Below, piece by piece: positions 7,710 through 64,000 of a stretch of 64,000 nucleotides of DNA. The notes beneath the pieces were generated by a model. The model did no database searches. It had not been told where the DNA came from and saw only the letters and a program-made list of their open reading frames with translations. Source of the DNA: Candidatus Magasanikiibacteriota bacterium (GTDB taxonomy: Bacteria > Patescibacteriota > Patescibacteriia > Magasanikbacterales > GWA2-37-8). The stretch covers positions 36,291-100,290 of the forward strand of contig JBAYGI010000002.1 in NCBI GenBank assembly GCA_041666745.1, given 5' to 3'. The stretch's first letter is position 1. The number at the start of each line of letters is the position of its first letter. The position numbers were made by a program, and so were the translations under genes.

Positions 7710-8984
7710 ATGTGGGAAAAAATTGAACAAGTTTGGAAAATTAAAGATATTAGAAAAAATATCTTATTTGTCTTGGCCATGTTGGTAGTATTTCGTTTGG
7801 CTTCACATGTGCCGGTTCCGGGAGTAAATGTCGCCAATTTAAAAAATTATTTGGAAGGCAATCAGATCATGGGGTTGTTGAATGTGTTTTCCGGTGGTAC
7901 CATGTCAAATTTTTCAGTGATCATGTTGGGTGTGGCTCCGTATATTACGGCTTCTATTATTTTTCAGTTGTTGGCGATGATTGTGCCGGCTTTGGAAGAA
8001 ATGACTAAAGAAGGTGAATCCGGCCAACAGCGCATCAACATGTATACTAGATATCTGACAGTACCTCTAGCATTTTTGCAATCTTTTGCTATGATCCGTT
8101 TGTTGCAAAATTCCTCTCGTCCGATTTTATCGGATTTGACTCCTTTTAGAATGATTACCATTATGGCCACCATTACTGCCGGAACAATGTTTTTGGTGTG
8201 GCTCGGTGAATTGATTTCAGAAAAGAAAGTTGGCAACGGGATGTCCTTGTTGATTTTTGCCGGTATCGTTTCTTCTTTGCCAACAATTTTACGCAATGCT
8301 TTTATCAACTATACTTCGGCTGATTTTTATACTTTTGTTCTGATGGCCGGTGTAGCGGTTTTGACTGTAGTTGGTGTGGTATTTATCAATGAGGGACAGA
8401 GAAATATTCCGGTCAATTATGCCAAACAAATGCGTGGCAATCATGTTTACGGCGGTTCTTCTTCACACTTGCCAATTCGTGTAAATATGTCCGGTGTAAT
8501 TCCGATTATCTTCGCGATTTCTTTGGTGTTATTTCCACCGATGGTTGCTCAGTTTTTCGTACATGCCCGTAGTGCTTGGTTGTCTGTAATGGCAGTGAAG
8601 ACTATCGCCTTGTTTCAAAATCAATTATTTTATGGTTGTGCTTATTTCTTGTTAGTATTTTTCTTCACTTATTTCTATACAGCCGTTATTTTCCATCCTC
8701 AAAAAATTGCGGAGAATTTGCAACGTCAGGGTGGGTTCGTGCCAGGTATTCGTCCAGGTAAAGAAACTGAAAAATATTTGGGCATGACTGTAAATCGTAT
8801 CAATTTAATCGGCGCTACTTTCCTAGGTTTGATTGCAGTGTTACCATTGTTGGTCCAAGGGGCTTCGGGTACGACCTCGTTTCAGATTGGTGGTACTAGT
8901 TTGTTGATCGTAGTGGCAGTGGCTATCGAAGCGGCCAAACAGATTGAATCTCAGGTGACAATGCATGAGTACGACCGTATTTAA
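7710..8984 (+). CDS. secY: Preprotein translocase subunit SecY
   Basis: 424 aa, 10 TM pattern, ...MLGVAPYITASIIFQLL... SecY signature. Confidence 0.95.
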   Translation: MWEKIEQVWKIKDIRKNILFVLAMLVVFRLASHVPVPGVNVANLKNYLEGNQIMGLLNVFSGGTMSNFSVIMLGVAPYITASIIFQLLAMIVPALEEMTKEGESGQQRINMYTRYLTVPLAFLQSFAMIRLLQNSSRPILSDLTPFRMITIMATITAGTMFLVWLGELISEKKVGNGMSLLIFAGIVSSLPTILRNAFINYTSADFYTFVLMAGVAVLTVVGVVFINEGQRNIPVNYAKQMRGNHVYGGSSSHLPIRVNMSGVIPIIFAISLVLFPPMVAQFFVHARSAWLSVMAVKTIALFQNQLFYGCAYFLLVFFFTYFYTAVIFHPQKIAENLQRQGGFVPGIRPGKETEKYLGMTVNRINLIGATFLGLIAVLPLLVQGASGTTSFQIGGTSLLIVVAVAIEAAKQIESQVTMHEYDRI

Positions 8985-8998
8985 GATTTAATTCTTTA

Positions 8999-9108
8999 TC
9001 AAAAAAACACAGGTTACAACCACCTTTTCGCTTTTTTTGCCCGCGAGGGCAAAAGGATGAGCCTCGGCTCATAACCCGCTCAAAGGTAATTGTAACCTGT
9101 GTTTTTTT
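8999..9108 (+). ncRNA. Unclassified structured RNA / terminator-embedded conserved element, copy 1 (A-run, 13-bp outer stem ACACAGGTTACAA/TTGTAACCTGTGT, ~70-nt conserved core with GCGA-tetraloop hairpin and CUCG hairpin, U-run)
   Basis: Near-identical core repeated at 41602-41671 with completely different but perfectly paired outer stem and compensatory changes in inner hairpin (TGCCC-GCGA-GGGCA vs CAGCC-GCGA-GGCTG). Confidence 0.5.
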
Positions 9109-9176
9109 CGTCAGTTTGCAATTTCTGCTGTAAATCGGTATTTTTTTATTCTTTGAAATGGTATATAATTGGTGGT

Positions 9177-11426: not shown

Positions 11427-11723
11427 ATGGAAATCTGCTGTATCAAGTTGCCGCGTTTCGCGGTATCTACGGTGTCGAACGGCGAACCAGACCAGCTCAT
11501 ACATGTGAATGTGCGAGCAGGCCGGTATACCAAACAGGTCATCGTTCGAAGGGATGACGCGATTTCCCTGTTGAAGGGATATGCGGGCAACCGCACCATC
11601 GATTTCTACGACGCGCTCGATTCGGAAGTCCCGGCCGGACAGATTCTGGCCAAGGATATTCTCGCCGTCAATTTGCCACGGACATCAAGGAAACGGGACG
11701 GACTTTACCTTTGTGGCCGTTAG
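11427..11723 (+). CDS. Hypothetical 98-aa ORF inside GC-rich island (possibly non-coding)
   Basis: ATG ORF, GC3 ~65% unlike host genes; no recognisable domain. Confidence 0.2.
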   Translation: MEICCIKLPRFAVSTVSNGEPDQLIHVNVRAGRYTKQVIVRRDDAISLLKGYAGNRTIDFYDALDSEVPAGQILAKDILAVNLPRTSRKRDGLYLCGR

Positions 11724-11743: not shown

Positions 11744-11771
11744 AGGCCGCGGATCTCTCGATCCGCGGCCT
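11744..11771. terminator. Perfect 12-bp palindrome with 4-nt loop (AGGCCGCGGATC tctc GATCCGCGGCCT), likely bidirectional terminator between convergent transcription units
   Basis: Seen directly; located 10 nt from stop of minus-strand gene 11782..12387. Confidence 0.5.
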
Positions 11772-11781
11772 CAGCATTTAT

Positions 11782-12387
11782 TTAGGCGCTAAAGACGTAA
11801 GTTTTTTTCTCCGGATTTAATTTGTAAACTGTCCACGGTCCACTACCATATATTTTATCCAGTTCTTGTAACAAAGAACTTTTTTCATTACTGTGCACTA
11901 CCAACGTACGAGTGGTTTCATCGGCGTGGGCGACACTGTATGTTAAATCGATGGCTATATAATAACCTTTGTTGTGATTGGCCGGATCGGGTATTTCCAA
12001 CAGTCCAATACTGTGAAATTTAAAATGAGCAAAAGCGCCTTTGGTTGGATTTTCATTTTCCAAATCAGAATATTTGGCTTGAGGGTATCTTTCAAAAAAT
12101 TTTTTATCATCATCGTCGGTTTGGTTGACGAGCATTTTGCCAAAATCTTGGGTAGCACTACGACAATTGGCGGCATATTCTTTTTCGGTACCACGGTCGC
12201 CTCTCAAAGCAGTTCTATTTTTTGAACGATAAAATTGAGTAATTACTTCGTCGATATCAAGCATAATATTTTCTTTTTCCGGTCCTAGATCCAGACGGAC
12301 TTTTCCTTCGCGATCCAGATGTTGGGTAACCACTCGTGGTTTGTCTTTTGCTTCGATAGCTGTTCCATGTCTACGTTCGAAAGGCAT
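11782..12387 (-). CDS. Hypothetical protein (201 aa), last gene of long minus-strand operon
   Basis: Long ORF with host-like composition, 16 nt downstream of radA; no recognised motif. Confidence 0.5.
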   Translation of the reverse strand: MPFERRHGTAIEAKDKPRVVTQHLDREGKVRLDLGPEKENIMLDIDEVITQFYRSKNRTALRGDRGTEKEYAANCRSATQDFGKMLVNQTDDDDKKFFERYPQAKYSDLENENPTKGAFAHFKFHSIGLLEIPDPANHNKGYYIAIDLTYSVAHADETTRTLVVHSNEKSSLLQELDKIYGSGPWTVYKLNPEKKTYVFSA

Positions 12388-21769: not shown

Positions 21770-23185
21770 ATGTTTCCAAAACAGGTATTTAAAGTCTATG
21801 ATATCCGCGGTCTAACAGAGGGTGAGTTGAGCGAAGATTTGGCCTATCGGATTGGCAGAGCGTATGGAGTGTTTTTGCGAGAAAGTAGCACTGTCATTCC
21901 GATCCGCCAGTCGGCGGGCGAGGAATCCCTCAAAGTGGTGGTCGGGCAAGACATGCGCGCCACCAGTCCGAAATATGCAAAAGAAGTAATTCGCGGGCTA
22001 AATGATGAAGGTCTAAATGTGGTAGATATCGGTTTGGCCAGCACGCCACTGTTTAATTTTGCTTGTACTTTTTATCCTGAACATTTGGCTGGTATCATGG
22101 TGACTGCCAGCCACAACCCGGCGCAATACAATGGTTTCAAAATGACCCTGCACGATGGTACGCCAGTCGGAGGAAAAACCGGTATGGATACGATTCGCGA
22201 TTTAGCAGAAAAAAATGAGTGGACATCGGCGAACGCAGAAAATGTCATTCCCGCGAAAGCGGGAATCCAGGCATCAATCACCCAAAAAGATGTCTTCCCA
22301 GATTACCTAAACAAAATTTTATCCATTGTAAAACCGGAAGAAATAAAACCATTAAAAATAGTAATTGACGCCGGCAACGGTATGGCCGCCGTCACATTCG
22401 TGGAATTATTAAAAAAGTTACCGGTGCAGGTTGAATATTTGTTTTTAAAACCGGATGGAAATTTTCCGAATCACGAGGCCAATCCGTTGAAAACTGAAAC
22501 ATTAAAAACATTGCAGGAAAAAGTAAAAGCCACCGGCGCGGATTTTGGTTTTGCCTTGGATGGAGACGCGGATCGTATGGGTTTAGTAGATGAAAATGGG
22601 GAAGTGGTGGAAGCGTCTTTTGTTGGGGCTTTGGCTGGTTTAGAAATTTTACGAGAACACCCTGGTGTACACATGCTTTATGATTTGCGCTCCAGTAAAA
22701 TTCAGAAAGAAGTTTGGGAAGCCAATGGCGCTACGACCGGTATGTGTCCGGTGGGGCATGCGAATATAAAAAAGATGATGAAAGATCAAAAGGCAGAGTT
22801 CGCCAGCGAGCTGTCTTTGCATCTGTATTTTCACTCCATGTGTGATGTGGAATCCACCGATTTGGCCCTGTTATATTTCTTGCGATTGTTATCTCGTAGT
22901 GGCAAAAAATTGAGCGAGCTGATCGCGCCGTTGAAAAAATATTTTCATTCCGGTGAGATAAATTTCAAAGTGGCCGACAAAGAAAAAGTGTTGAACAATT
23001 TACGTGTTCAATATGGCGATGCAAAAATAACCGAGTTGGATGGATTATCTTTTGAATATCCGACTTGGTGGTTTAATGTACGCGCGAGTAATACTGAGCC
23101 GGTTTTGCGGCTGAATTTGGAGGCGGATACCAAGGGTGAAATGGAAGAAAAATTGGTGAATGTGAAAAATATAATCAATGGATAG
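21770..23185 (+). CDS. Phosphoglucomutase/phosphomannomutase family (alpha-D-phosphohexomutase)
   Basis: Active-site TASHNPAQYNGFK, Mg-binding DGDADR, 471 aa; carries two in-frame GC-rich palindromic insertions. Confidence 0.85.
   Translation: MFPKQVFKVYDIRGLTEGELSEDLAYRIGRAYGVFLRESSTVIPIRQSAGEESLKVVVGQDMRATSPKYAKEVIRGLNDEGLNVVDIGLASTPLFNFACTFYPEHLAGIMVTASHNPAQYNGFKMTLHDGTPVGGKTGMDTIRDLAEKNEWTSANAENVIPAKAGIQASITQKDVFPDYLNKILSIVKPEEIKPLKIVIDAGNGMAAVTFVELLKKLPVQVEYLFLKPDGNFPNHEANPLKTETLKTLQEKVKATGADFGFALDGDADRMGLVDENGEVVEASFVGALAGLEILREHPGVHMLYDLRSSKIQKEVWEANGATTGMCPVGHANIKKMMKDQKAEFASELSLHLYFHSMCDVESTDLALLYFLRLLSRSGKKLSELIAPLKKYFHSGEINFKVADKEKVLNNLRVQYGDAKITELDGLSFEYPTWWFNVRASNTEPVLRLNLEADTKGEMEEKLVNVKNIING
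21893..21930. repeat. GC-rich palindromic element inserted in-frame in pgm (GTCATTCCGATCCGCCAGTCGGCGGGCGAGGAATCCC)
   Basis: Nested inverted repeats ATTCC...GGAAT and CCGCC-AGTC-GGCGG; encodes extra peptide SSTVIPIRQSAGEESLK just before conserved VVVGQDMR. Confidence 0.5.
22244..22270. repeat. GC-rich palindromic element GTCATTCCCGCGAAAGCGGGAATCCAG inserted in-frame in pgm (encodes VIPAKAGIQ; antisense WIPAFAGMT)
   Basis: Perfect 8-bp stem ATTCCCGC/GCGGGAAT with GAAA loop; reverse complement almost identical (27/28) to intergenic copy at 30481-30509. Confidence 0.6.
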
Positions 23186-29895: not shown

Positions 29896-30462
29896 TTAAA
29901 ACTTCACCTGCACGTTCTGTCTCTCACCCTCGGCTGCTTGGAAAAATTCGTATTTAGCAAATTTCAAAAAGCCGGCAAACATATTGGTCGGGAATGTCTG
30001 AATACTGGTATTGAAGTCGCGCACATTGCCATTGTAAAATCTGCGACTGGCTTGTATTTTATTTTCCGTATCCGAAATTTCATCTTGCAATTGCAAAAAG
30101 TTTTGGCTGGCTTTTAATTCCGGATAATTTTCTGTAACCGCAAACAAACTTTTTAAAGTAGAGGACAGAGCGTTTTCCGCTTGTTCGCGTTGTGCCAATG
30201 TCGCGCCGGAATTGTCGTGTACCGCCATCGCCGAGGTGCGTGCTTCGGTCAATTTTACCAATGTCTCGCGTTCGTGGGTCATATATCCCTTCACGGTTTC
30301 CACCAAGTTTGGGATAAGGTCGTATCGGCGTTTGAGCTGGACATCAATATCAGAAAAGGCCTCGTCCACGCGGTTTTTCCCGCGCACCAGACCATTAAAA
30401 ACGGCAATTATCCAGATTAGCACTATTGCCAGAACCGCTAAAATAATATAAAGTATAGGCAT
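29896..30462 (-). CDS. lemA: LemA family membrane protein
   Basis: N-terminal TM then ...FNGLVRGKNRVDEAFSDIDVQLKRRYDLIPNLVETVKGY... LemA signature. Confidence 0.8.
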   Translation of the reverse strand: MPILYIILAVLAIVLIWIIAVFNGLVRGKNRVDEAFSDIDVQLKRRYDLIPNLVETVKGYMTHERETLVKLTEARTSAMAVHDNSGATLAQREQAENALSSTLKSLFAVTENYPELKASQNFLQLQDEISDTENKIQASRRFYNGNVRDFNTSIQTFPTNMFAGFLKFAKYEFFQAAEGERQNVQVKF

Positions 30463-30480: not shown

Positions 30481-30509
30481 CTGGATTCCCGCGTTCGCGG
30501 GAATGACAG
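30481..30509. repeat. Intergenic copy (reverse orientation) of palindromic element CTGGATTCCCGCGTTCGCGGGAATGACAG in divergent lemA/rseP promoter region
   Basis: Reverse complement matches 22244-22270 at 27/28 positions; GC-rich tail continues to ~30540. Confidence 0.55.
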
Positions 30510-41194: not shown

Positions 41195-41581
41195 ATGTTT
41201 ACAAACTCAAAAGATATTTTATATTTAGTTATTTCGTTTTGCGTGCTGTGGGTGACTTTTTTCTTGTGTTGGATGTTTTATTATTTGATGCGTTTGTTGC
41301 GCAATGCCAATGAGATCGTCGAGGAATTTCGGGTGCGACTGCAGACTTTGACCGAGGCTATAAATTATATTCGCGGAAAAGTGGAACACATGTCCGGTTT
41401 GATGACTTTGATTACTGACGGCGCTTCCGGTTTGATTCAAAAAGTAATCGCCAAAAAAACCCACGAATGGGTAGAGGATGGATCCGAAAAGATAAATAAA
41501 AGCGCCAAAGAGGCGGTGGCTAGGGCAGTGGCTGTGACTGCTAAAAAAATGAAGAAAGCTACTAAGGCGATCAAAAAATAA
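41195..41581 (+). CDS. Hypothetical small membrane protein (1 TM + helical Lys-rich tail)
   Basis: ATG at 41195 preceded by AGAGGGG RBS; TM LYLVISFCVLWVTFFLCWMFYYL. Confidence 0.5.
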   Translation: MFTNSKDILYLVISFCVLWVTFFLCWMFYYLMRLLRNANEIVEEFRVRLQTLTEAINYIRGKVEHMSGLMTLITDGASGLIQKVIAKKTHEWVEDGSEKINKSAKEAVARAVAVTAKKMKKATKAIKK

Positions 41582-41690
41582 TAAAAAATACGCACATATA
41601 ACCACCTTTTCGCTTTTTTCAGCCGCGAGGCTGAAAGGATGAGCCTCGGCTCATAACCCGCTCAAAGGTAATTATATGTGCGTATTTTTT
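41582..41690 (+). ncRNA. Unclassified structured RNA / terminator-embedded conserved element, copy 2 (outer stem ATACGCACATATAA/TTATATGTGCGTAT)
   Basis: Core 41602-41671 matches 9020-9089 except compensatory changes in GCGA hairpin; flanked by A-run and U-run. Confidence 0.5.
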
Positions 41691-41699
41691 ATTATTTTT

Positions 41700-41728
41700 T
41701 TGACTGTGGATAAGGTTTGGAGTATGAT
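41700..41728 (+). promoter_or_regulatory. Sigma70-like promoter TTGACT-N17-TATGAT for gdh
   Basis: Consensus-like hexamers ~30 nt upstream of start. Confidence 0.45.
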
Positions 41729-46618: not shown

Positions 46619-49111
46619 ATGAAAAAGTATAACCATCAGGAAGTTGAAAAAAAATGGAAGAAAAAGTGGGAGGATAGTGAAATTTACAAAACAGCGGATA
46701 CTTCGGATAAACCAAAATATTATGTTTTGGATATGTTTCCGTATCCGTCTGGCGCCGGTTTGCATGTTGGTCATCCCAAAGGATATATTGCTACAGATAT
46801 TATTGCGCGTCAAAAAATGATGCAAGGTTACAATGTACTTCACCCGATGGGTTGGGACGCGTTTGGTTTGCCGGCAGAAAATTATGCCATCGCGAACAAA
46901 GTGCATCCGAGTGTGGCCACGGCCAAAAACATCAAAACTTTCAAAAAGCAATTGGGTTTGCTTGGTTTTACCTATGATTGGAATCGCGAAGTGAATACTA
47001 CCGACCCGGCATATTACAAATGGACACAATGGGCATTTGTTCAAATGTTTAAAAAAGGTTTGGCTTATGAATCTTTTGAGCCGATCAACTGGTGTCCGAG
47101 TTGTCAGACCGGTTTGGCCAACGAAGATTTGAACGATGGAAAATGTGAGCGCTGTGGTAGTGAGATTGAACACAAGCCGATGCGCCAATGGGTTTTGAAA
47201 ATTACTGATTATGCGGAGAGGTTATTGAAAGATTTAGAAAAATTACCACAATGGCCGGAACATATTAAAAAAATGCAGAGTGATTGGATTGGAAAGAGTG
47301 AAGGGGCGGAAGTGGATTTTACGATTGTCATCCCGAGCGAAGCCGAGGGATCCCTCCACTCGTTGCGACACTCAGTCGGGATGACAACTCTCAAAGTATT
47401 CACCACTCGTCCGGATACTTTGTTTGGTGCGACCTATATGGTAATAGCGCCGGAACATAAAATTTTAGAACAATTAAAAGAAAAAATTTCCAATTGGACA
47501 GAAGTGCAAAAATATATTACCGATGCGAATAAAAAATCCGATTTGGAACGCACGGATTTGGCCAAAGAAAAAACCGGCGTGCGAATCAAAGGTGTGGAAG
47601 CGATAAATCCAGTCACGGAAGAATCGTTACCAATTTTTGTAGCTGATTATGTTTTGGCCGGTTATGGTACCGGAGCGATCATGTCTGTACCAGCGCACGA
47701 TGAACGAGATTGGGAATTTGCTAAAAAATATAAACTACCGATAGTAGATGTAGTATTGCCAATGGATAAAAACGGCGCTGTTCTTTTTGATGCCAACAAT
47801 TTAAGTGAAAGTGCTTTTTGTGAAAATGGTGTGGCGGTGAATTCGGACTTTTTAAATAATTTACCTACCGAAGAAGCCAAAGAAAAAATGATTGGATGGT
47901 TGGAAGAAAAAGGAATAGGCAAAAGGAAAGTACAATACAAATTACGCGATTGGGTTTTTTCTCGTCAGCGTTATTGGGGTGAGCCGATTCCTTTGGTAAA
48001 ATGTGAAAAATGTGGTTGGATCCCAGTTCCGGAAAATGAATTACCGCTTGAACTTCCAAAAGTAAAAAATTACGCACCTAGTGGTACCGGGGAATCACCG
48101 CTCGCCACTATCGACAAATGGGTAAATACCAAATGTCCGCAGTGTGGTGGCAAAGCCCAACATGAAACCAACACCATGCCACAGTGGGCGGGGAGTTGTT
48201 GGTATTATTTACGCTATGAAGATCCACACAATGAAAAAGAATTGGTAAACAAAAACAAAGAAAAATATTGGAGTCCGGTAGATTTGTATGTTGGTGGAGC
48301 CGAGCATGCCACGCGTCATTTGATCTACGCGCGTTTTTGGCATAAATTTTTATTTGATATCGGTGTGGTGCAAAACGACGAACCGTTTACTCGTTTGCAA
48401 AATGTCGGTTTAATTTTGGCCGAAGATGGACGCAAAATGAGTAAGCGCTGGAACAATGTGATCAACCCCGACGATGTGGTAAAAGAATACGGTGCCGACG
48501 CCATGCGTTTGTATGAAATGTTTATGGGACCATTTGATCAGCCATGTGCTTGGAATACTCAAGGGTTGGTAGGTATGAAAAGATTTTTGGAAAGAGTTTG
48601 GGGGTTGTTGGGGAAAAATACCGGATCCCCGATCGGGTCGGGGATGACAAGTGGTGCTATAACTCTATTACATCAGACAATAGAAAAAGTTTCAAAAGAT
48701 ATTGAAACACTTTCTTTCAACACCGCCATCGCCAAGATGATGGAGTTGGTGAATGAGTTTAATAAACATGAGCAAATCACCACAAAAGATTTGAAAACTT
48801 TTTTACAATTACTCGCTCCCTTTGCCCCTCATATTAGTGAAGAATTATGGGGCGTGTTGGGAGAAAAAGAAAGCATATTCAAGTCAGTTTGGCCAAAACA
48901 TGATCCGGAACTGGCAAAAGATGTTGAAATTACTCTGGCTGTGCAGATAAATGGTAAATTACGCGACACCATCACCGTGTCTGCTGATATTTCCGAAGAA
49001 CAAGCCAAACAAACTGCTTTATCTAGTGAAAAAGTAAAAAAATGGCTGGAAAACAAACCCCCTCAAAAGGTGATTTATGTTAAAGGGAAACTGATCAGTA
49101 TAGTAGTGTAA
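46619..49111 (+). CDS. leuS: Leucine--tRNA ligase
   Basis: HVGHPKGY (HIGH), KMSKS, CP1 editing domain; 830 aa; carries two in-frame GC-rich palindromic insertions. Confidence 0.95.
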   Translation: MKKYNHQEVEKKWKKKWEDSEIYKTADTSDKPKYYVLDMFPYPSGAGLHVGHPKGYIATDIIARQKMMQGYNVLHPMGWDAFGLPAENYAIANKVHPSVATAKNIKTFKKQLGLLGFTYDWNREVNTTDPAYYKWTQWAFVQMFKKGLAYESFEPINWCPSCQTGLANEDLNDGKCERCGSEIEHKPMRQWVLKITDYAERLLKDLEKLPQWPEHIKKMQSDWIGKSEGAEVDFTIVIPSEAEGSLHSLRHSVGMTTLKVFTTRPDTLFGATYMVIAPEHKILEQLKEKISNWTEVQKYITDANKKSDLERTDLAKEKTGVRIKGVEAINPVTEESLPIFVADYVLAGYGTGAIMSVPAHDERDWEFAKKYKLPIVDVVLPMDKNGAVLFDANNLSESAFCENGVAVNSDFLNNLPTEEAKEKMIGWLEEKGIGKRKVQYKLRDWVFSRQRYWGEPIPLVKCEKCGWIPVPENELPLELPKVKNYAPSGTGESPLATIDKWVNTKCPQCGGKAQHETNTMPQWAGSCWYYLRYEDPHNEKELVNKNKEKYWSPVDLYVGGAEHATRHLIYARFWHKFLFDIGVVQNDEPFTRLQNVGLILAEDGRKMSKRWNNVINPDDVVKEYGADAMRLYEMFMGPFDQPCAWNTQGLVGMKRFLERVWGLLGKNTGSPIGSGMTSGAITLLHQTIEKVSKDIETLSFNTAIAKMMELVNEFNKHEQITTKDLKTFLQLLAPFAPHISEELWGVLGEKESIFKSVWPKHDPELAKDVEITLAVQINGKLRDTITVSADISEEQAKQTALSSEKVKKWLENKPPQKVIYVKGKLISIVV
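47326..47386. repeat. GC-rich palindromic element inserted in-frame in leuS (TGTCATCCCGAGCGAAGCCGAGGGATCCCTCCACTCGTTGCGACACTCAGTCGGGATGACA)
   Basis: 10-bp terminal inverted repeat GTCATCCCGA/TCGGGATGAC plus inner palindrome GAGGGATCCCTC; encodes extra ~14-20 aa (IVIPSEAEGSLHSLRHSVGMTT) in a loop that is 8 aa in E. coli LeuS. Confidence 0.55.
48623..48649. repeat. Second GC-rich palindromic element in leuS (GGATCCCCGATCGGGTCGGGGATGACA; encodes PIGSGMTSG)
   Basis: 8-bp stem ATCCCCGA/TCGGGGAT; shares GGGATGACA terminus and GGATCC with the other family members. Confidence 0.45.
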
Positions 49112-59800: not shown

Positions 59801-62800
59801 TCTGGTATGCGGATACTGATTTTGACAATCAATACAAAACCGGCATGAGAGTTCGTTTGCGAGCTATTGATATTTTCAATAATCAAAGTGGTGACACAGA
59901 AACTTCCGACTTTACTTTGGATACCGCCAATCCGGTTGTTTCCAATGTCATAGCCGGTCAAACTTTGGGTTCGGATAGTGTTACAATAAATTATGATTTA
60001 GCTGATAATTCTACAGACAATGTTTTGGTCGTTTTGGATGTTTCATCTGACAATGGTTCTTCATGGACGGTAGCTACTTCTTCTTTGTCCGGTGATATCG
60101 GAACAAGTCAGACGACCGGTTCAAATAAATCAGTTACTTGGAATGCCGGAGGGGATTTTGGTGAGCAGTACAACAACAACATGCAAGTTCGTGTGCGAGC
60201 AATGGATAAATTTACCAATTGGGGTACTTATGTAAGTTCCTCAAATTTCATGGTTGATACCAAAGCGCCGGTTATTTTAACTTTAGCGAATTTGAAGGCT
60301 CAGCCTAATGCCGGCGACACCACAGTTTTGATCGGTGGAAACTTTTCTGAAGATAATCCGGACACCAATGATTTTTACGTGGCAAATAATGGCGGGAGTT
60401 ACAGTGTGGCCACGGCAGGAGATAATAATACCGCCAACCCGTCTGACCAAATCACTGCTGTCGGCTCAACCTTGAAAGGCAGTAGCTATATTTCTAAAGT
60501 AAAGATATTACATACGGATGATTTTGGAAATATAAAATCAAATGAAAACATTAATCCTGCCAGTGGTTATAAATATGTAAAACCATACACACCGGCAACT
60601 TTGACAGTAAATAACCCTACTTCCAGTTCGGTAGACGTCGCAGTGAATAAAAATACCAACGAAGTGTCAGGTTTGGAATATGCGATTTATGAAAATTCAA
60701 CCGGTAAATATGTGCAGACAGATGGCACGCTCAATACTGATGCCGTTTGGCAAACCGGAGCAAGTTGGGGTACAAAAACTGTGATCGGTTTGAGTTCACC
60801 TGTGTCCGTTTATGTTTTTCAAACCAAATCCAGAAATAGCGCCGATACTGCTCATGCCACATCCAGCGAGAGTTCTTTGTCCGCTGGTGCTTCGGCCGGT
60901 AATAATTCACCGGTAATTTCTATAAATTCTGTTGTCCAAAGCGCAGGCTCGAATTATGTGATGATCAATTATACCGGTTCAGATAATGAAAACGATGTGG
61001 TAAATTTGGTCAACTACGAATATTCATTAAATGATGTCGATTGGTTTGCGATGACCGAAAAATCCGGTGTTGGCAGTGATGGTAAAACCAATTTGGCCTT
61101 TACTTCCGGTGGAACGGCATTGGTATTTGCTTGGAATGCAGGCGCTGATTTATCTAATGTAGAGGATGCATCGGTGTATATTCGTCTTAGAGGTAATGAC
61201 GGTGTCCTTAATGGCAATTTGGAACAAAGTTCCGCTTTTGCGCTGGATTTGAAAGTACCAACCATTAGTAATATTAGCGCGAGTCAAGTAATTGATAGTA
61301 GTACAGTCGCTATCGCTTATGATTTATCTGATCTCACCGCTACAAGCAATACAGTTGTAATGGATATTTCTTCAGACAATGGATCGACTTGGACAATAGC
61401 GACTACAACCTTATCCGGTAATATTGGCAGTGGACAAAATGTTGGGGTTGGAAATACCATTAGTTGGAATGCGGGAGTAGATTTTGCTGATCAATATAGT
61501 ACACAAATGAAAGTTAGAATACGAGCGGTTGATTATTATGGAAATCAAAACGGCAGTGTTGTTTCAGGAGCCTTTACGGTTGATACCGCCGCTCCAATAA
61601 TAACCAATGTATCAGCTTCACAAATTTCCAACACCAACAATGTATCAATAACTTACGATTTGGCTGACACAAATAATTCAACCGTGGCAATTGATATTTC
61701 AGAAGATGGTGGGTCAACTTGGGCAGTAACCGATATTTCAGTTGCCGGTAATATTGGAGCGGGTGTTGCGCCGGGTACCGGTAAAACAATTGTTTGGAAT
61801 GCCGGCACGGATTTTGGCGGGCAATCACAATCGGATATGCGTGTGAGAGTGAGAGCTACTGATACTTATGGAGAAACTAGCGCCAATGTGTCATCGGCAA
61901 ATTTCTCGGTTGATACCGCTGTTGCTTTGTTGACAAATGTTTCGGCTACTCAGTCTATTGGATCAACCAACGTGATAATAAATTATGATTTAGCAGATTC
62001 AAATAATTCAACCGTTGTGATTGATATTTCTGATGATGGTGGATCAACATGGACCGTCACGGATACTTCTGTTTCCGGAAATATTGGCACCGGTGTCACA
62101 CCTGGCAACGGTAAATCTATAACTTGGAACGCTGACACGGATTTTGATTATCAATATCAAACAGATATGCGTGTGAGAGTACGCGCGACTGATGTGTATG
62201 GCAATCAAACCGCATATGTTGAATCTTCCAATTTTATTTTGGACACGGATAATCCGGTAGTAACAAATGTGGCTGTGGCGCAGACGGTTGGAACAAAAAA
62301 TGTAGTTATTACATATGATATCGCGGAAAATAATAATTCAACTGTGGCGATTGATATTTCAGAAGACGGTGGATCAACATGGACCGTCACGGATACTTCG
62401 GTTTCCGGAAATATTGGCGCCGGTGTCACACCAGGCACGGGTAAATCTATCACTTGGAATGCCGGCGCTGATTTTAATGGGCAGGCACAATCCGACATTC
62501 GAGTTAGAGTTCGAAGTGTAGATATTTTTGGTAATCAAGGAAATTATATCGAATCAAATAATTTTGCTCTGGACACTGCCACTCCGGTGATATCAAATAT
62601 TTCAGCCGGTCAATCGGCAGGTAGTAATAATGTAACTGTGGTCTATGATTTATCTGACGACAATACTTCCAATCTCAATGTTGCGTTGGATATATCTTCA
62701 GACAATGGGGTTACTTGGACGGTAGCGACCAGTACGGTGAGTGGCAATATTGGCGGTAGTCAAACCGCCGGTTTTGGAAAGAGTATTTCCTGGAATGCCG

Positions 62801-64000
62801 GTACAGATTTTTCGAATCAGTTTAGTGAAAATTTCCGAATACGTTTAAGAGCCTATGATATTTTTGGCAACCAAAGTAATAATTTTAGTTCGCCATTATT
62901 TACAGTAGACACACAAGCGCCGACTGTTTCTGGTGTGGTCGCTTCGCAGTCCGGCAATGGTGTAGTGGTGGTGAATTATAGTTTGGTTGATAATTCAGCC
63001 TTTAACAATTCTGTGACAATTGGTATTTCCGATGACGATGGCATTTCTTGGAATGTGGTAACTACTTCTGTAAGCGGGGATGTTGGAGTCAACCAAAATA
63101 CGGGTGTGCGTACTTTTGTTTGGGACGCGCCAATTGATTTTTACAGCCAACTTAATTCAGGCATGAAAGTACGTGTGCGAGCCACGGACACCTTTGGTAA
63201 TCAAGGAAGTTTTGTTCAATCATCTGCCTTTAGTTTGGATACCAAAGCTCCGGTGATTAGTAATGTTGCTGTCACACAAACTCTCAGTACGGATACAATT
63301 GTTGTTCATTATGATTTAACTGAAAATACTACGACATCTACTGTATCAGTGGAAGCCTCAGATGATGGTGGTTTGACATGGAATGTGACTATCACAAGTT
63401 TGACCGGCTCCGTTGGCAATGTTACAGCGGGTAGTAAAACCATCAATTGGAATGCCGGCGCGGATTTTGTTAATCAGGAAAAAAATAATATGCGTGTTCG
63501 TTTACACGCCTCGGACACTTTTGGTAATCTGAGCAGTAATTTTAGTTCAAGTGATTTTGTGCTCGACACCAAGGCTCCGGTTGGATTAGCTACAATCAGT
63601 AAATTTAGTTCAGCCACCGGCTCGGTTACTTTAAATTGGTCTGCGGGAGTGACTGATATCAATTTCAATCATTATGAAATTTGGCATGGAACGAACCAAA
63701 GTGATGTAAACAATCGCACCAGTTCAGCTTTGAAATGGAGCACGACCGACGATTCGGGATTGTCCAATATTTTGACCATTTCCACAGTTATTACCGGTAT
63801 TCCAACCGACGGAGATTATTTTGTGAAGATATTTGCTGTTGATGACTATAATCACGAAGCTACTATTCCAAGTATTGCGGTGTTTCAAACCGCAGTTACA
63901 CCGGTGACAGTAATTACCAGCGGTGGTGGTGGTGGCTTTGTCGCTCCGATAATTACTCGTTTGAGTCGTCCGATTTTAGATCCGATTGTTCCAATGGAAA
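50842..64000 (+). CDS. Giant surface/adhesin-like protein, partial (>4386 aa, continues past window end): N-terminal 2-TM anchor, ~550-aa unique region, >=21 tandem ~110-aa Asp-box (SxDxGxTW) beta-sandwich-type repeats interleaved with 4 copies of a ~330-aa FN3-containing supermodule
   Basis: ATG 50842 two nt after upstream stop; single open frame to 64000 (absent from supplied ORF track only because it lacks a stop); periodic motifs LDISSDNGSTWTVAT...KTITWNAG.DF.NQ...MKVRVRA.D every ~330 nt. Confidence 0.8.
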   Translation, partial: MATRWLNFFFRFSGYVFGLKQKIVKSDSLWKVIPEAIFLLLLEFSFAIVSLPMYLLVPPEKVQETGAIFPSANKEKPQISTYVVRRKISLVTTLSAAIIFFSKLIFVGIVSFYLLGAQQLLASTQDWDFTTSSQYITSSSSIEFVGGTAQLKDLGATVTGSTINAGVTTTGNNWAYNDWTDPSNVVVGGTRQTSNGNPGPYLNVNIAITGSATQNRTGAGYWTQSFVTTVASPDTATLNLDWKSITYTSPTAPATYRLYAFIDTSPTTTPPSSTSTAVWNSGEITGTTNWASISAVNIASKVPTAGTYYLKIAAYATSPKVATSFSYISGFDNIIVNWSKVTHVYDSTKPTVTPSSSLTMAKTVSWNSFAETATKNGGEIYYQLTGDDGSTWKYWNGSAWATASASNYNIATDVNTYIGSFATSSNQIKFKAFLSSSGSQQVILDNVAIGYTENLPPTVANLAPAQNIQNGYVFVNYNLQDTESDPSSLVNYEYSLTGAFAGEQVAMTASTTDPAHSGISNLTTSPAGVAHTFVWDAKSQLGAVYNTSVYVRMRGNDSIQSGAYTTSTVFTVDYVNPVVTNVSATQPLNTTTVQISYDLSDNTTDNLFTDFQVSGDGGSTWAVATSSASGAVGSGVTAGAGKIIYWNAGTNYGGHQQSNMQVRVRAKDKWQNIDGFVTSTNFSLDTLAPATLVTADLKAQPNAGDTTVLIGGSFTEVNPSTNTFYAAVTGGAYDGATIGTLNSASPSNQATTVTTSLKGNDYISKVKITHTDKYGQSFDNENTSPSTTFKFVKPYTPAAPTLSNPITTHLDLVVNSNVNEASGLEYAIYETTTAKYVQSNGTLGVSAVWQTSVAWGTKTVTGLSSPVSQYIFQVKSRNTSDGAHAVSSESAFSATAQIPNTAPSIALNTYAQTTDGTDYVTIAYTGTDGQGDISGVPTYQYSTDNATWHTMTQKSGVGSSGTSSLVFLPTGSAYNFAWDSNADLPTVETSTTKIRLKPNDSLIDGSTVTSNAFTVDHKAPVISAVTALQGAGTRTVTFSYTLTDANTSFVDLQVSNDGGMTWAIATSTVSGSVGAGVTPGAGKIITWNVATDFNEQYNTNMKVHIRARDSFGNQGVYDPSSPFTVDTHAPVISNITAVQDSSADTFTFHYDISEDASNSTLVLAISSNGGSTWVVATSTATGDIGSVANGTNKTITWNGATDFADQEKTNMQIRLTANDQYDNSSNLASGNFNLDTYAPRVTAVSGLQSTGNTTVGFSYTLTDQNSSLVQIDISSDGGSTWNVPSSSLTGDIGNVSPGSKSITWNAKTDFSNQQISNMRVRVRGKDIFNNQSGNTTSTNFSLDTLNPASLVITDLKAQPLAGDTAVLIGGSFTEVNPNTNIFSVAIDGGSYGSGVAGTVNTASPSDQSTAVGVTLKGNDYISKVKITHTDDYGQATDNENTSPSTTFKYVKPYTPAAPTVDNPTVGTVDALINKNVNEADGLEYAIYETSQSKYVQANGTLGTGAVWQPLGVLVGQWGEFLSVSGKVRVNSLATHSYLYQFEIKSRNSSDGAHLTSSESAFSAGASSANQSPVITINSASQTTDGSKYIPINYTGSDLESETNVLVKFEYSTDNSNWHTMTEKSGVGSNGTTGLAFVYTGTAHLFAWDVGTDLANTEDNTVYVRLQANDGTSSGNVATVSAFTVDTKNPSIASLTANQVLGLHNVSIGYNLTDLNTSTVILNISSDGGSTWNITSSTVSGAVGVGVTPGDGKSITWNALADFANQESSNMKVRLRATDSFGNQDIFVTSSAFIADTKVPVVSNVSAVQNSGNNFVTVGYDLSDASTSTVYLEVSSDSGSSWTVTSTNVSGNVGANVTPGSDKTITWNAGIDFPSQQVATMRVRVKATDVYNNAGENTESADFALDSKAPLLTNVSAAQVIGSDNFNFTYDLFDSANVIISLDISSNGGSTWTVATSSLSGAVGSGVAPGFGKTVSWNGAVDFNSQQKNNMKIRIRGTDIFNNTSINFESDVFNLDTLAPATAIGVDVKSQPNAGDTTVLVGGSFTETNPSANIFVVAINDGAYVASTTGQSGTATPADQATGVGTTLTGSDYISKVKIVETDNFGHNSTNENTSPNTTYKYVKPYTPSAPTVNNPQNTSLDVTVNANISESSTVEYAIMEVSTNKYVQTNGTLASSTVWKTLGVGAGQWGNTSGVSGKITVSSLNSPVANYSFKVKSRNPSDVAHAISSESDFSNITTITNSAPTISIVSASQSNNTNYVVINYTGTDGQNDTNNLTGYQFSTNTTNWFTMTEKSGVGSSGTNNLIFSSTGTAFNFAWNIAVDLPNTEVPTVYARLQSSDTLASSNLAVSSAFSVDTVGPVVSNILVSQTPNTNNVVINYDLSDNSGSNNTVILQISSNGGSTWTVPTTTLSGEVGTGVSVGTGKTVIWNVGVDYNNQENDVMKVRIVGIDRFDNIGSFVSSDDFTVDTKAPVVSIDSIIQEAGDGVIDVSYDISDHTMSGNFVDMQISDDGGATWNVVTTTVGGDIGAGVPSDGETFDWNAKVDFPNQEQSDMRVKVRARDYFGNQGVFVSSGNFSVDTKGPVVSSVTASQSTGTSTITINYNLTDLTASNLDVILDVSDDGGFSWTVATTTLAGNIGGSQTTGSGKTITWNSNVDYPGIYNTAMQVRVRAIDTWNNVGSNEASSNFTVDTAVPSISNITASQTVGSNSVTVHYDLSDDTTTNLTVALDISSDNGSTWTVATTTLSGNIGSGQTTGVNKTITWNAGIDFANQYNTVMKVRVRALDYYTNFASAILGTAFTLDTKNPVVSNVVAEQTVGTTNFVINYDLNDDNISNLTVALDISSDNGSTWTVATSTLSGNVGVGQDVGTNKAITWNAGTDYNSQYKTQMKVRVRAVDNYSNSSGNVNSSAFGLDTKNPIISNLTAIQNVGYNNVVIGYDLTEDTTSSIVVALDISNNSGSTWTVATTTLTGNIGSGQTAGNGKSIIWYADTDFDNQYKTGMRVRLRAIDIFNNQSGDTETSDFTLDTANPVVSNVIAGQTLGSDSVTINYDLADNSTDNVLVVLDVSSDNGSSWTVATSSLSGDIGTSQTTGSNKSVTWNAGGDFGEQYNNNMQVRVRAMDKFTNWGTYVSSSNFMVDTKAPVILTLANLKAQPNAGDTTVLIGGNFSEDNPDTNDFYVANNGGSYSVATAGDNNTANPSDQITAVGSTLKGSSYISKVKILHTDDFGNIKSNENINPASGYKYVKPYTPATLTVNNPTSSSVDVAVNKNTNEVSGLEYAIYENSTGKYVQTDGTLNTDAVWQTGASWGTKTVIGLSSPVSVYVFQTKSRNSADTAHATSSESSLSAGASAGNNSPVISINSVVQSAGSNYVMINYTGSDNENDVVNLVNYEYSLNDVDWFAMTEKSGVGSDGKTNLAFTSGGTALVFAWNAGADLSNVEDASVYIRLRGNDGVLNGNLEQSSAFALDLKVPTISNISASQVIDSSTVAIAYDLSDLTATSNTVVMDISSDNGSTWTIATTTLSGNIGSGQNVGVGNTISWNAGVDFADQYSTQMKVRIRAVDYYGNQNGSVVSGAFTVDTAAPIITNVSASQISNTNNVSITYDLADTNNSTVAIDISEDGGSTWAVTDISVAGNIGAGVAPGTGKTIVWNAGTDFGGQSQSDMRVRVRATDTYGETSANVSSANFSVDTAVALLTNVSATQSIGSTNVIINYDLADSNNSTVVIDISDDGGSTWTVTDTSVSGNIGTGVTPGNGKSITWNADTDFDYQYQTDMRVRVRATDVYGNQTAYVESSNFILDTDNPVVTNVAVAQTVGTKNVVITYDIAENNNSTVAIDISEDGGSTWTVTDTSVSGNIGAGVTPGTGKSITWNAGADFNGQAQSDIRVRVRSVDIFGNQGNYIESNNFALDTATPVISNISAGQSAGSNNVTVVYDLSDDNTSNLNVALDISSDNGVTWTVATSTVSGNIGGSQTAGFGKSISWNAGTDFSNQFSENFRIRLRAYDIFGNQSNNFSSPLFTVDTQAPTVSGVVASQSGNGVVVVNYSLVDNSAFNNSVTIGISDDDGISWNVVTTSVSGDVGVNQNTGVRTFVWDAPIDFYSQLNSGMKVRVRATDTFGNQGSFVQSSAFSLDTKAPVISNVAVTQTLSTDTIVVHYDLTENTTTSTVSVEASDDGGLTWNVTITSLTGSVGNVTAGSKTINWNAGADFVNQEKNNMRVRLHASDTFGNLSSNFSSSDFVLDTKAPVGLATISKFSSATGSVTLNWSAGVTDINFNHYEIWHGTNQSDVNNRTSSALKWSTTDDSGLSNILTISTVITGIPTDGDYFVKIFAVDDYNHEATIPSIAVFQTAVTPVTVITSGGGGGFVAPIITRLSRPILDPIVPME
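52560..63600 (+). repeat. Diverged tandem coding repeats (~330-nt unit x >=21; ~1-kb supermodule x4 beginning ~52925, ~54901, ~56920, ~60290) within giant gene
   Basis: Recurring peptide motifs at regular spacing; nucleotide copies are diverged (not identical). Confidence 0.7.

Follow-up and report, generated by a model that had tools for sequence, protein, structure and literature searches.

In-frame palindromic repeats of a CGTC-type family in two loops of leucyl-tRNA synthetase of a Candidatus Magasanikiibacteriota bacterium, and a candidate GIY-YIG partner gene

The present analysis concerns a 64,000-nucleotide stretch of DNA (hereafter the window) from a Candidatus Magasanikiibacteriota bacterium (contig JBAYGI010000002.1 of assembly GCA_041666745.1), in which the leucyl-tRNA synthetase gene leuS carries two GC-rich palindromic segments in frame, one at 47326-47386 (site 1) and the other at 48621-48649 (site 2). 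These segments are quite probably copies of a dispersed, non-autonomous palindromic repeat that is kept in tolerant loops of the enzyme and that likely stems from an insertion sequence (IS)-like element with a GIY-YIG nuclease gene. Judged by their sequence, they belong to the CGTC-tagged repetitive extragenic palindromic (REP) superfamily, which includes dRS3/NTS of Neisseria, the Rickettsia palindromic elements (RPEs) RPE-4 and RPE-6, and the Ssn-related motifs (SRMs). The phenomenon is known in kind; what is new is the host lineage, the Candidate Phyla Radiation (CPR; Patescibacteria), and the analysis adds two hot spots in leucyl-tRNA synthetase (LeuS or LeuRS) and, from the same candidate phylum, a nuclease gene whose ends match. 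A first-pass annotation of the window had noticed both segments; its observation was confirmed and its interpretation supported, while the known repeat superfamily, which is found across bacteria, had not been recognised in it.

The host gene is an intact open reading frame (ORF) of 830 aa (46619-49111, + strand) that contains both elements in frame and the HVGH, KMSKR, and TTRPDT motifs. Its product aligns with the Thermus thermophilus LeuRS 1H3N with an E value of 1.5e-225, and its best database matches, at no more than 76% identity, are LeuS proteins of Candidatus Magasanikbacteria and Patescibacteria. The GC content is 0.61 at site 1 and 0.67 at site 2 versus 0.40 for the remainder of leuS, in a window that is AT-rich as a whole (GC approximately 0.39). 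The sequences and coordinates first reported for the two segments (47326-47386, 61 nt, and 48623-48649) proved to be exact.

Site 1 is a 61-nt palindrome of the form T-GTCATCCCGA...TCGGGATGAC-A (47326..47386, no strand assigned), which translates as VIPSEAEGSLHSLRHSVGMT. With no mismatches allowed, GTCATCCCGA occurs in the 64 kb only at 47327-47336 (+) and 47376-47385 (-); the inverted terminus reaches 12 bp (TTGTCATCCCGA/TCGGGATGACAA), and an inner palindrome, GAGGGATCCCTC, lies at 47345-47356. Folded as single-stranded DNA (ssDNA), the 59-nt core has an energy of -13.5 kcal/mol (z -3.1), and one of 200 shuffled sequences was equally good. A codon-level DNA comparison with the leuS loci of seven relatives defined the basic unit as a non-pairing GTC, mostly preceded by T, a GC-rich hairpin starting with ATYCC, and then a C; in other subfamilies, the hairpin stem starts with ATTGCG in place of ATYCC. 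The left hairpin (GTCATCCCGAGCGAAGCCGAGGGATC, 47327..47352, +), a 26-mer that contains GCGAAGC, and the right hairpin (GTCATCCCGACTGAGTGTCGCAACGAGTGGAGGGATC, 47349..47385, -) are units of one kind with opposite orientations; they overlap in the central palindrome at 47345-47356 and form an inverted pair ('HH dimer') with the GTC tags outside; both have 5-bp outer stems and larger structured loops. GCGAAGC, contained in the left unit, is known as a DNA mini-hairpin of exceptional stability. At site 2 there is one unit only (TGTCATCCCCGACCCGATCGGGGATCCGG, 48621..48649, -), whose hairpin, GGATCCCCGATCGGGTCGGGGATGACA at 48623-48649, spans 27 nt or nine codons and folds as a single strand with an 8-bp stem (z -2.1 versus shuffles). 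The inserts would be transcribed and translated as extra loop residues, and the peptide predicted from the two regions (47326-47386 and 48621-48649) is, for example, VIPSEAEGSLHSLR.

Aligned with 120 Patescibacteria LeuS homologues, the window LeuS has 23 residues (TIVIPSEAEGSLHSLRHSVGMTT) in the site-1 loop, between KSEGAEVDF and LKVFTTRPDT, versus a modal length of 8 (48/120 homologues, e.g., KIKDSEQT), which is also the length in T. thermophilus LeuRS. The net increase over the mode is 15 aa, and the earlier description of this segment as an insertion is borne out. A plain 8-aa loop and an ordinary site-2 linker characterise the nearest relatives (P0001, 76% identical, P0005-P0010, and others), and no unit of the family was found in 22 kb of the P0001 contig; the peptides did not occur in relatives free of the repeat, in agreement with the first-pass annotation. 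When the insert columns were masked, a neighbour-joining LeuS tree showed a scattered distribution of occupied and empty states, which, together with the absence of both segments from the closest relatives, favours insertion. The same annotation held that site 2 adds nine residues; the unit does encode nine (GSPIGSGMT on the + strand), but the linker has 38 residues versus a modal 35 in the same frame of reference, a gain of only 3 aa, so that the unit either took the place of some linker residues or is the leftover of a larger insert. The single unit is possibly a remnant of a pair; full dimers are present at site 2 in the relatives P0002, P0020, and P0050, and the corresponding linker of T. 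thermophilus LeuRS is longer still than that of the window.

Both segments map to loops in an AlphaFold2 model of the window LeuS (mean pLDDT 82.3). Strands 226-237 and 256-262 form a beta-hairpin with site 1 at its tip, where residues 242-253 have a pLDDT below 50 and the insert is predicted to be disordered. The corresponding hairpin of T. thermophilus LeuRS is at approximately residues 235-242, just N-terminal to T247/T248/T252, which belong to the threonine-rich motif for editing where the CP1 editing domain begins. In the window LeuS, this hairpin opens the CP1 editing domain, and its tip, site 1, precedes the TTRPDT editing motif by five residues; site 2, a coil (666-677) between helices 647-665 and 678-696, is an inter-helix loop at the entry to the anticodon-binding domain.

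The same two loops are occupied repeatedly. Unit-type peptides of the VIP..GMT, VIA..PRND, and VIL..QDD types were present at site 1 in approximately 19-21 of the 120 homologues and at site 2 in nine, the unit subfamilies at the two loops differ among lineages, and the two LeuRS loops are insertion hot spots. At site 1 of the leuS of L126 (8343-8414), one unit (8363-8386) is nested in the loop of another and followed by a third, reverse unit, giving a 38-aa insert, and this nesting requires an insertion event. The site-2 copy of L004 has drifted towards AT and lost its GTC tag, which is the behaviour expected of an unselected insert. Of the 15 units located outside leuS in Patescibacteria loci, 13 are intergenic, and none of the genic copies is in the one reading frame that contains TGA, a pattern consistent with the selection for frame-preserving sites that had been proposed for this family. 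The reading V-I-x is seen in 13 of the 14 genic units in sense orientation, most of which are the same LeuS sites and hence not independent.

Larger additions to LeuS were also observed. Whole extra domains are present at the site-1 hairpin in the homologues P0003, P0004, P0012, P0068, P0100, and P0110, that of the first three being an alpha/beta-hydrolase of approximately 180 aa (PF00561/PF06821); a NUDIX domain (PF00293) occurs at a different place in the LeuS of other homologues, and many others are 930-1320 aa long.

The window contains six GC-rich units, three of which lie outside leuS. Two are on the + strand in a phosphoglucomutase-like gene (domains PF02878-80 and PF00408), namely, pgm-1 (VIPIRQSAGEESL, 21892..21931) and pgm-2 (22243..22270, read as VIPAKAGIQ), and one is intergenic (TGTCATTCCCGCGAACGCGGGAATCCAG, 30481..30508, -), 5' of the first start codon of the ORF 29896..30462. 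The GTC tag and the post-stem C are retained in all six. The tag is preceded by T in every window unit, as it is in most of the units read from relatives, versus C in Neisseria. The units at site 2, pgm-2, and the intergenic position have 8-bp stems and 4-5 nt loops, while the pgm-1 loop is longer than the SRM pattern permits. The first-pass annotation had stated that the leuS segments share both their termini and a GMT-encoding frame with the pgm copies; the termini are indeed shared, but the pgm copies have the opposite orientation and read VIP..., not GMT. Its suggestion of a high genomic load also needs to be narrowed, since the window holds only 6 units in 64 kb and the load differs widely among relatives, ranging from no unit in 22 kb up to 10 units in 20 kb. 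A generic search for GTC, a 5-bp stem, and C gave 15 matches versus 12.9 expected, which is the chance level until a GC filter is added.

Di Nocera et al. (2013; PMC3733652) defined the CGTC-tagged REP superfamily, in which CGTC-1 corresponds to Neisseria dRS3 and R. conorii RPE-6 and CGTC-4 to RPE-4. Its repeats are mostly tag-out 'HH' dimers with a stem of 8-9 bp and a loop of 4-5 nt, more than half of the in-frame intragenic copies are dimers or grouped repeats that encode 20-30 aa, and the repeats had no association with a Y1 transposase and 'no dedicated transposase' (PMC3733652). The window units are alike in their short GC-rich stem-loop, non-pairing tag ending in GTC, and short tail, in the tag-out pairing of site 1 and of nearly all LeuS inserts of relatives, and in having in-frame intragenic copies. 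They differ in that the tag is mostly TGTC rather than CGTC, in that the site-1 units have 5-bp outer stems and larger loops, and in their host, because the phylum Patescibacteria is outside the five phyla of that study.

In Neisseria, NTS is CGTCATTCCCGCGMAVGCGGGAATCYRG and contains dRS3 (PMC11893778, 2025). The SRM pattern, HGTCWYN(0-2)YYVSBRHN(0-5)WNVSBRGN(0-2)RNCYNB, has a consensus that permits A, C, or T before GTC, and SsnA, a small single-domain GIY-YIG protein, binds and cuts the SRM only as ssDNA and on one strand; in NTS, the three bases that precede the palindrome and the C that follows are critical, and Ssn proteins are members of CDD cd10448 (PMC11893778). The motif is spatially associated with ssnA-type genes, often on both sides, and cleavage of ssDNA and an effect on transformation, not transposition, were shown (PMC11893778). 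The SRM pattern has three matches in the window (48621-48649, 22243-22270, and 30481-30508) versus 0.09 expected, and the pgm-2 and intergenic units match NTS at 27 of 28 positions. The GTC and post-stem C that are kept in all window units are positions found to be critical in the Ssn study, which points to family identity. The likeness to NTS and SRM extends from the unit sequence and these critical bases to a motif-gene-motif layout around a single-domain GIY-YIG gene of approximately 95 aa, as described below, whereas intragenic or in-frame copies and Patescibacteria are not mentioned in PMC11893778. A literature search on palindromic or in-frame repeats in CPR bacteria and on the peptide motifs retrieved no relevant work.

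RPEs (Ogata et al. 2000, 2002) provide a parallel in genic behaviour, being selfish palindromic repeats that stand in frame in housekeeping genes of a small AT-rich genome, leave the ORFs intact, and occupy tolerant loops. RPE-1 is longer (approximately 100-150 bp), and Wolbachia also has protein-coding palindromes. The present case differs in its unrelated host, in the length of the leuS-region elements (27-61 nt), and in the reuse of the same two LeuRS loops across many lineages. The equivalence of RPE-4 and RPE-6 with CGTC families is that given in PMC3733652.

Beyond leuS genes of close relatives, the repeat is widely dispersed. The left 26-mer is identical (26/26), at the same codon, in the far more diverged LeuS gene of L005, and a scan of species-representative genomes in which two degenerate positions were allowed found GTCATYCCGAGCGAAGCCGAGGRATC, the left 26-mer, identical in at least 120 genome stretches (L006-L125) from more than 10 phyla. 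The matches listed include Acidobacteriota, Verrucomicrobiota, Chloroflexota, Bacteroidota, Firmicutes, and Nitrospirae, and, further, Cyanobacteria, Armatimonadota, Planctomycetota, Proteobacteria, Bdellovibrionales, and Patescibacteria; the 26-mer is frequently found at both ends of a longer palindromic sequence. Scanning metagenomes for the dimer junction yielded 13 low-GC contigs in which the element is mostly intergenic and all 13 copies are tag-out, L137 has a copy of the whole site-1 element, identical at 57 of 59 positions, just upstream of infC, and further intergenic copies are present in L127 and L129-L141. The peptides at the LeuS loops differ completely between lineages. By these sequence comparisons, the leuS segments are a dispersed repeat rather than a leuS-specific sequence. 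As a separate observation, the 26-mer of Acidobacteriaceae is part of a longer conserved repeat, ..CCTTT-26mer-TGCAGTT.CGCGGACC...

A candidate partner gene was identified by targeted tblastn, while neighbour-gene clustering around 139 cross-phylum 26-mer matches revealed no recurrent adjacent family within 1.5 kb. Genes of the GIY-YIG family (PF01541) are flanked by inverted site-1-type units in L043 (a Firmicute) and L084 (a Planctomycete). On five metagenome contigs that represent one low-GC locus (L133, L136, L138-L140), a site-1-type dimer lies 45 nt upstream of a 94-aa GIY-YIG gene and a reverse unit lies just downstream of it. The gene (L138 8705-8986; also in L133, L136, L139, and L140) carries TGA in frame exactly where ..SGTLYxGVT has its conserved Gly, which suggests that the host uses genetic code 25 (UGA = Gly), the code of Gracilibacteria and Absconditabacteria. 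With its product as the query, 2267 homologues were obtained, with named examples from Patescibacteria, Absconditabacterales, WS5, and Candidatus Magasanikbacteria. The Magasanikbacteria homologue P0172 (96 aa, 71% identity) is encoded on contig L142 between 66-nt terminal inverted repeats that are 95% complementary and start with TTGTCATTCCGACCGAGTTCGCACGAGTGGAGG, the whole forming an IS-like unit of 520 bp. The association of SRM-type units with a GIY-YIG gene was observed in L043, L084, L138, and L142. The site-1 right unit aligns over approximately 38 nt with the terminal inverted repeat of L142, and the leuS insert therefore looks like a gene-less form of such an element, similar to a miniature inverted-repeat transposable element (MITE). 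NCBIfam has no specific family for the nuclease, and its assignment is by Pfam PF01541 alone. Regarding L142 itself, the left inverted repeat is inside a larger mosaic of other units and repeats at 2620-2852 (2621-2669 and 2789-2825; arms 2679-2703 and 2828-2852), which resembles the clustered mosaics described for Neisseria.

Taken together, we suggest that two surface loops of LeuRS, both variable in length, took up units by insertion or by replacement of part of the loop, and that only in-frame, stop-free copies in tolerant loops of the presumably indispensable leuS would survive selection. The source would be a compact IS-like element in which a gene for a GIY-YIG (Ssn-type) single-strand nuclease of approximately 95 aa is placed between inverted repeats with the same termini, and the gene-less dimers would be its MITE-like derivatives. 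Insertion at many places with survivors filtered by selection is the simplest reading and is consistent with the data, and a site preference or the overwriting of a resident unit may contribute to the recurrence at the loops. Several observations weigh against this explanation. No target-site duplication or clear target motif was seen in 14 copies, and tblastn detected no GIY-YIG gene in the 64-kb window, which is also a difference from the NTS/SRM systems, or in the seven LeuS-centred loci of relatives, and the source genome may lack the enzyme. Both site-1 units and pgm-1 fail the strict SRM pattern because their loops are longer. Part of the recurrence at exactly two loops might stem from old insertions and their later overwriting instead of many independent hits, and no empty-site polymorphism was found at leuS, where the only other contig of this strain, identified through an exactly conserved neighbour protein, is identical.

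The alternatives differ widely in their plausibility. The segments might be lineage-specific functional modules of LeuRS for editing or tRNA binding in which the palindromic DNA is incidental, a view that could draw on the occupation of sites 1 and 2 in approximately 20 and nine of the 120 homologues, on the whole domains hosted at site 1, and on the V-I-x reading of the sense units; since the same DNA is intergenic and in other genes, the peptides are wholly different between lineages, the closest relatives do without the segments, the insert is predicted to be disordered, and older copies have decayed, we consider this very improbable and rejected it. Equally slight is the chance that these are classical REP or REPIN sequences moved by RAYT, a Y1 transposase of the IS200/IS605 type, which was likewise rejected. 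Hairpin units with a non-pairing tag, often in inverted doublets, do resemble REPINs, and with these and bacterial MITEs the present repeats share the organisation of inverted hairpin doublets that derive from a small element, lack its gene, and keep its ends (inverted termini of 12 bp in the window element and 66 nt around the GIY-YIG gene of L142). However, neither a Y1 transposase nor a target-site duplication was detected for the leuS units, their tag is (T/C)GTC followed by A and not GTAG (or GGAG), PMC3733652 reports no Y1 link for CGTC repeats, and the genes that are bracketed by units are GIY-YIG genes; a tblastn search of 1.18 Mb (the window and 141 unit-bearing or related loci) detected no Y1 transposase, which is a weak negative. 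An artefact of assembly or sequencing, such as a chimeric join or adapter-like sequence, has a practically negligible probability and was also rejected: the source is a metagenome assembly, but the ORF is intact, the independent contig L001 is identical across site 2, and analogous in-frame units are present in many independent assemblies (NCBI, ENA, JGI). An intein or a self-splicing intron was ruled out, the segments being just 27-61 nt in length and an Rfam search of the window at gathering thresholds having given no match.

The alternative that deserves more attention, although we regard it as rather unlikely, is that units spread by recombination, gene conversion, or DNA taken up in natural transformation, and that the GIY-YIG nuclease only cuts in a restriction-like manner, as in Neisseria. 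Only ssDNA cleavage and the modulation of transformation have been demonstrated for Ssn, no target duplication was seen, a ComEC-type competence gene is located one or two genes 3' of leuS in relatives' loci, and the presence of different subfamilies in the same loops fits overwriting. On the other hand, the first arrival in an empty loop and the nesting of one unit in another need an insertion step, and the arrangement of a gene between terminal inverted repeats is IS-like. A bolder version of the insertion explanation is possible, but we hold it only tentatively and think it improbable as a whole: the GIY-YIG (Ssn-type) gene might be the long-missing mobilising enzyme of the entire CGTC-REP/dRS3/RPE superfamily, the Patescibacteria pair (the 520-bp element with its GIY-YIG gene between terminal inverted repeats and the gene-less dimers of 48-63 nt) might be a minimal autonomous/MITE system, and the reoccupation of loops might reflect targeted insertion or the replacement of resident hairpins, not selection alone.

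These results extend protein-coding palindromic repeats from Rickettsia and Wolbachia to the CPR and indicate that a core translation enzyme repeatedly absorbs such units at two defined loops. They also account for many odd GC-rich peptides in the annotation of CPR proteins (VIPAKAGIQ, GSPIxSGMT, and ...PRND), and the Magasanikbacteria GIY-YIG gene with matching repeats represents a testable enzyme candidate for CGTC-type repeats.

Three other features of the window were noted. A perfect 11-bp GC-rich hairpin at 11745-11773 (GGCCGCGGATC-TCTC-GATCCGCGGCC, z -6.9), which resembles a terminator and has no relation to the GTC-tagged family, lies between two convergent ORFs, 11427..11723 (+) and 11782..12387 (-). 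A structured intergenic element of 105-135 nt is present in two copies, at 8995-9115 and 41567-41706 (RNA fold z -9.6 and -10.9), whose outer stem of 19-31 bp differs in sequence between the copies with complementarity kept, whose first inner hairpin shows a compensatory change (UGCCC/GGGCA versus CAGCC/GGCUG), and whose conserved core, ..AAAGGAUGAGCCUCGGCUCAUAACCCGCUCAAAGGUAAUU, is followed by a U-run; it matches no Rfam family. A similar element in the relative L003 (5996-6110, z -9.7) is intergenic and two genes upstream of the same glutamate-dehydrogenase gene, and possible identities for these elements are a structured RNA of no known class, an elaborate terminator, and a further small mobile element. 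A single reading frame is open from 50833 to the window end at 64000 (at least 4389 codons) and has GC-richer internal repeats, for example at 61752-61785 and 62412-62445; it probably encodes a giant repetitive surface protein.

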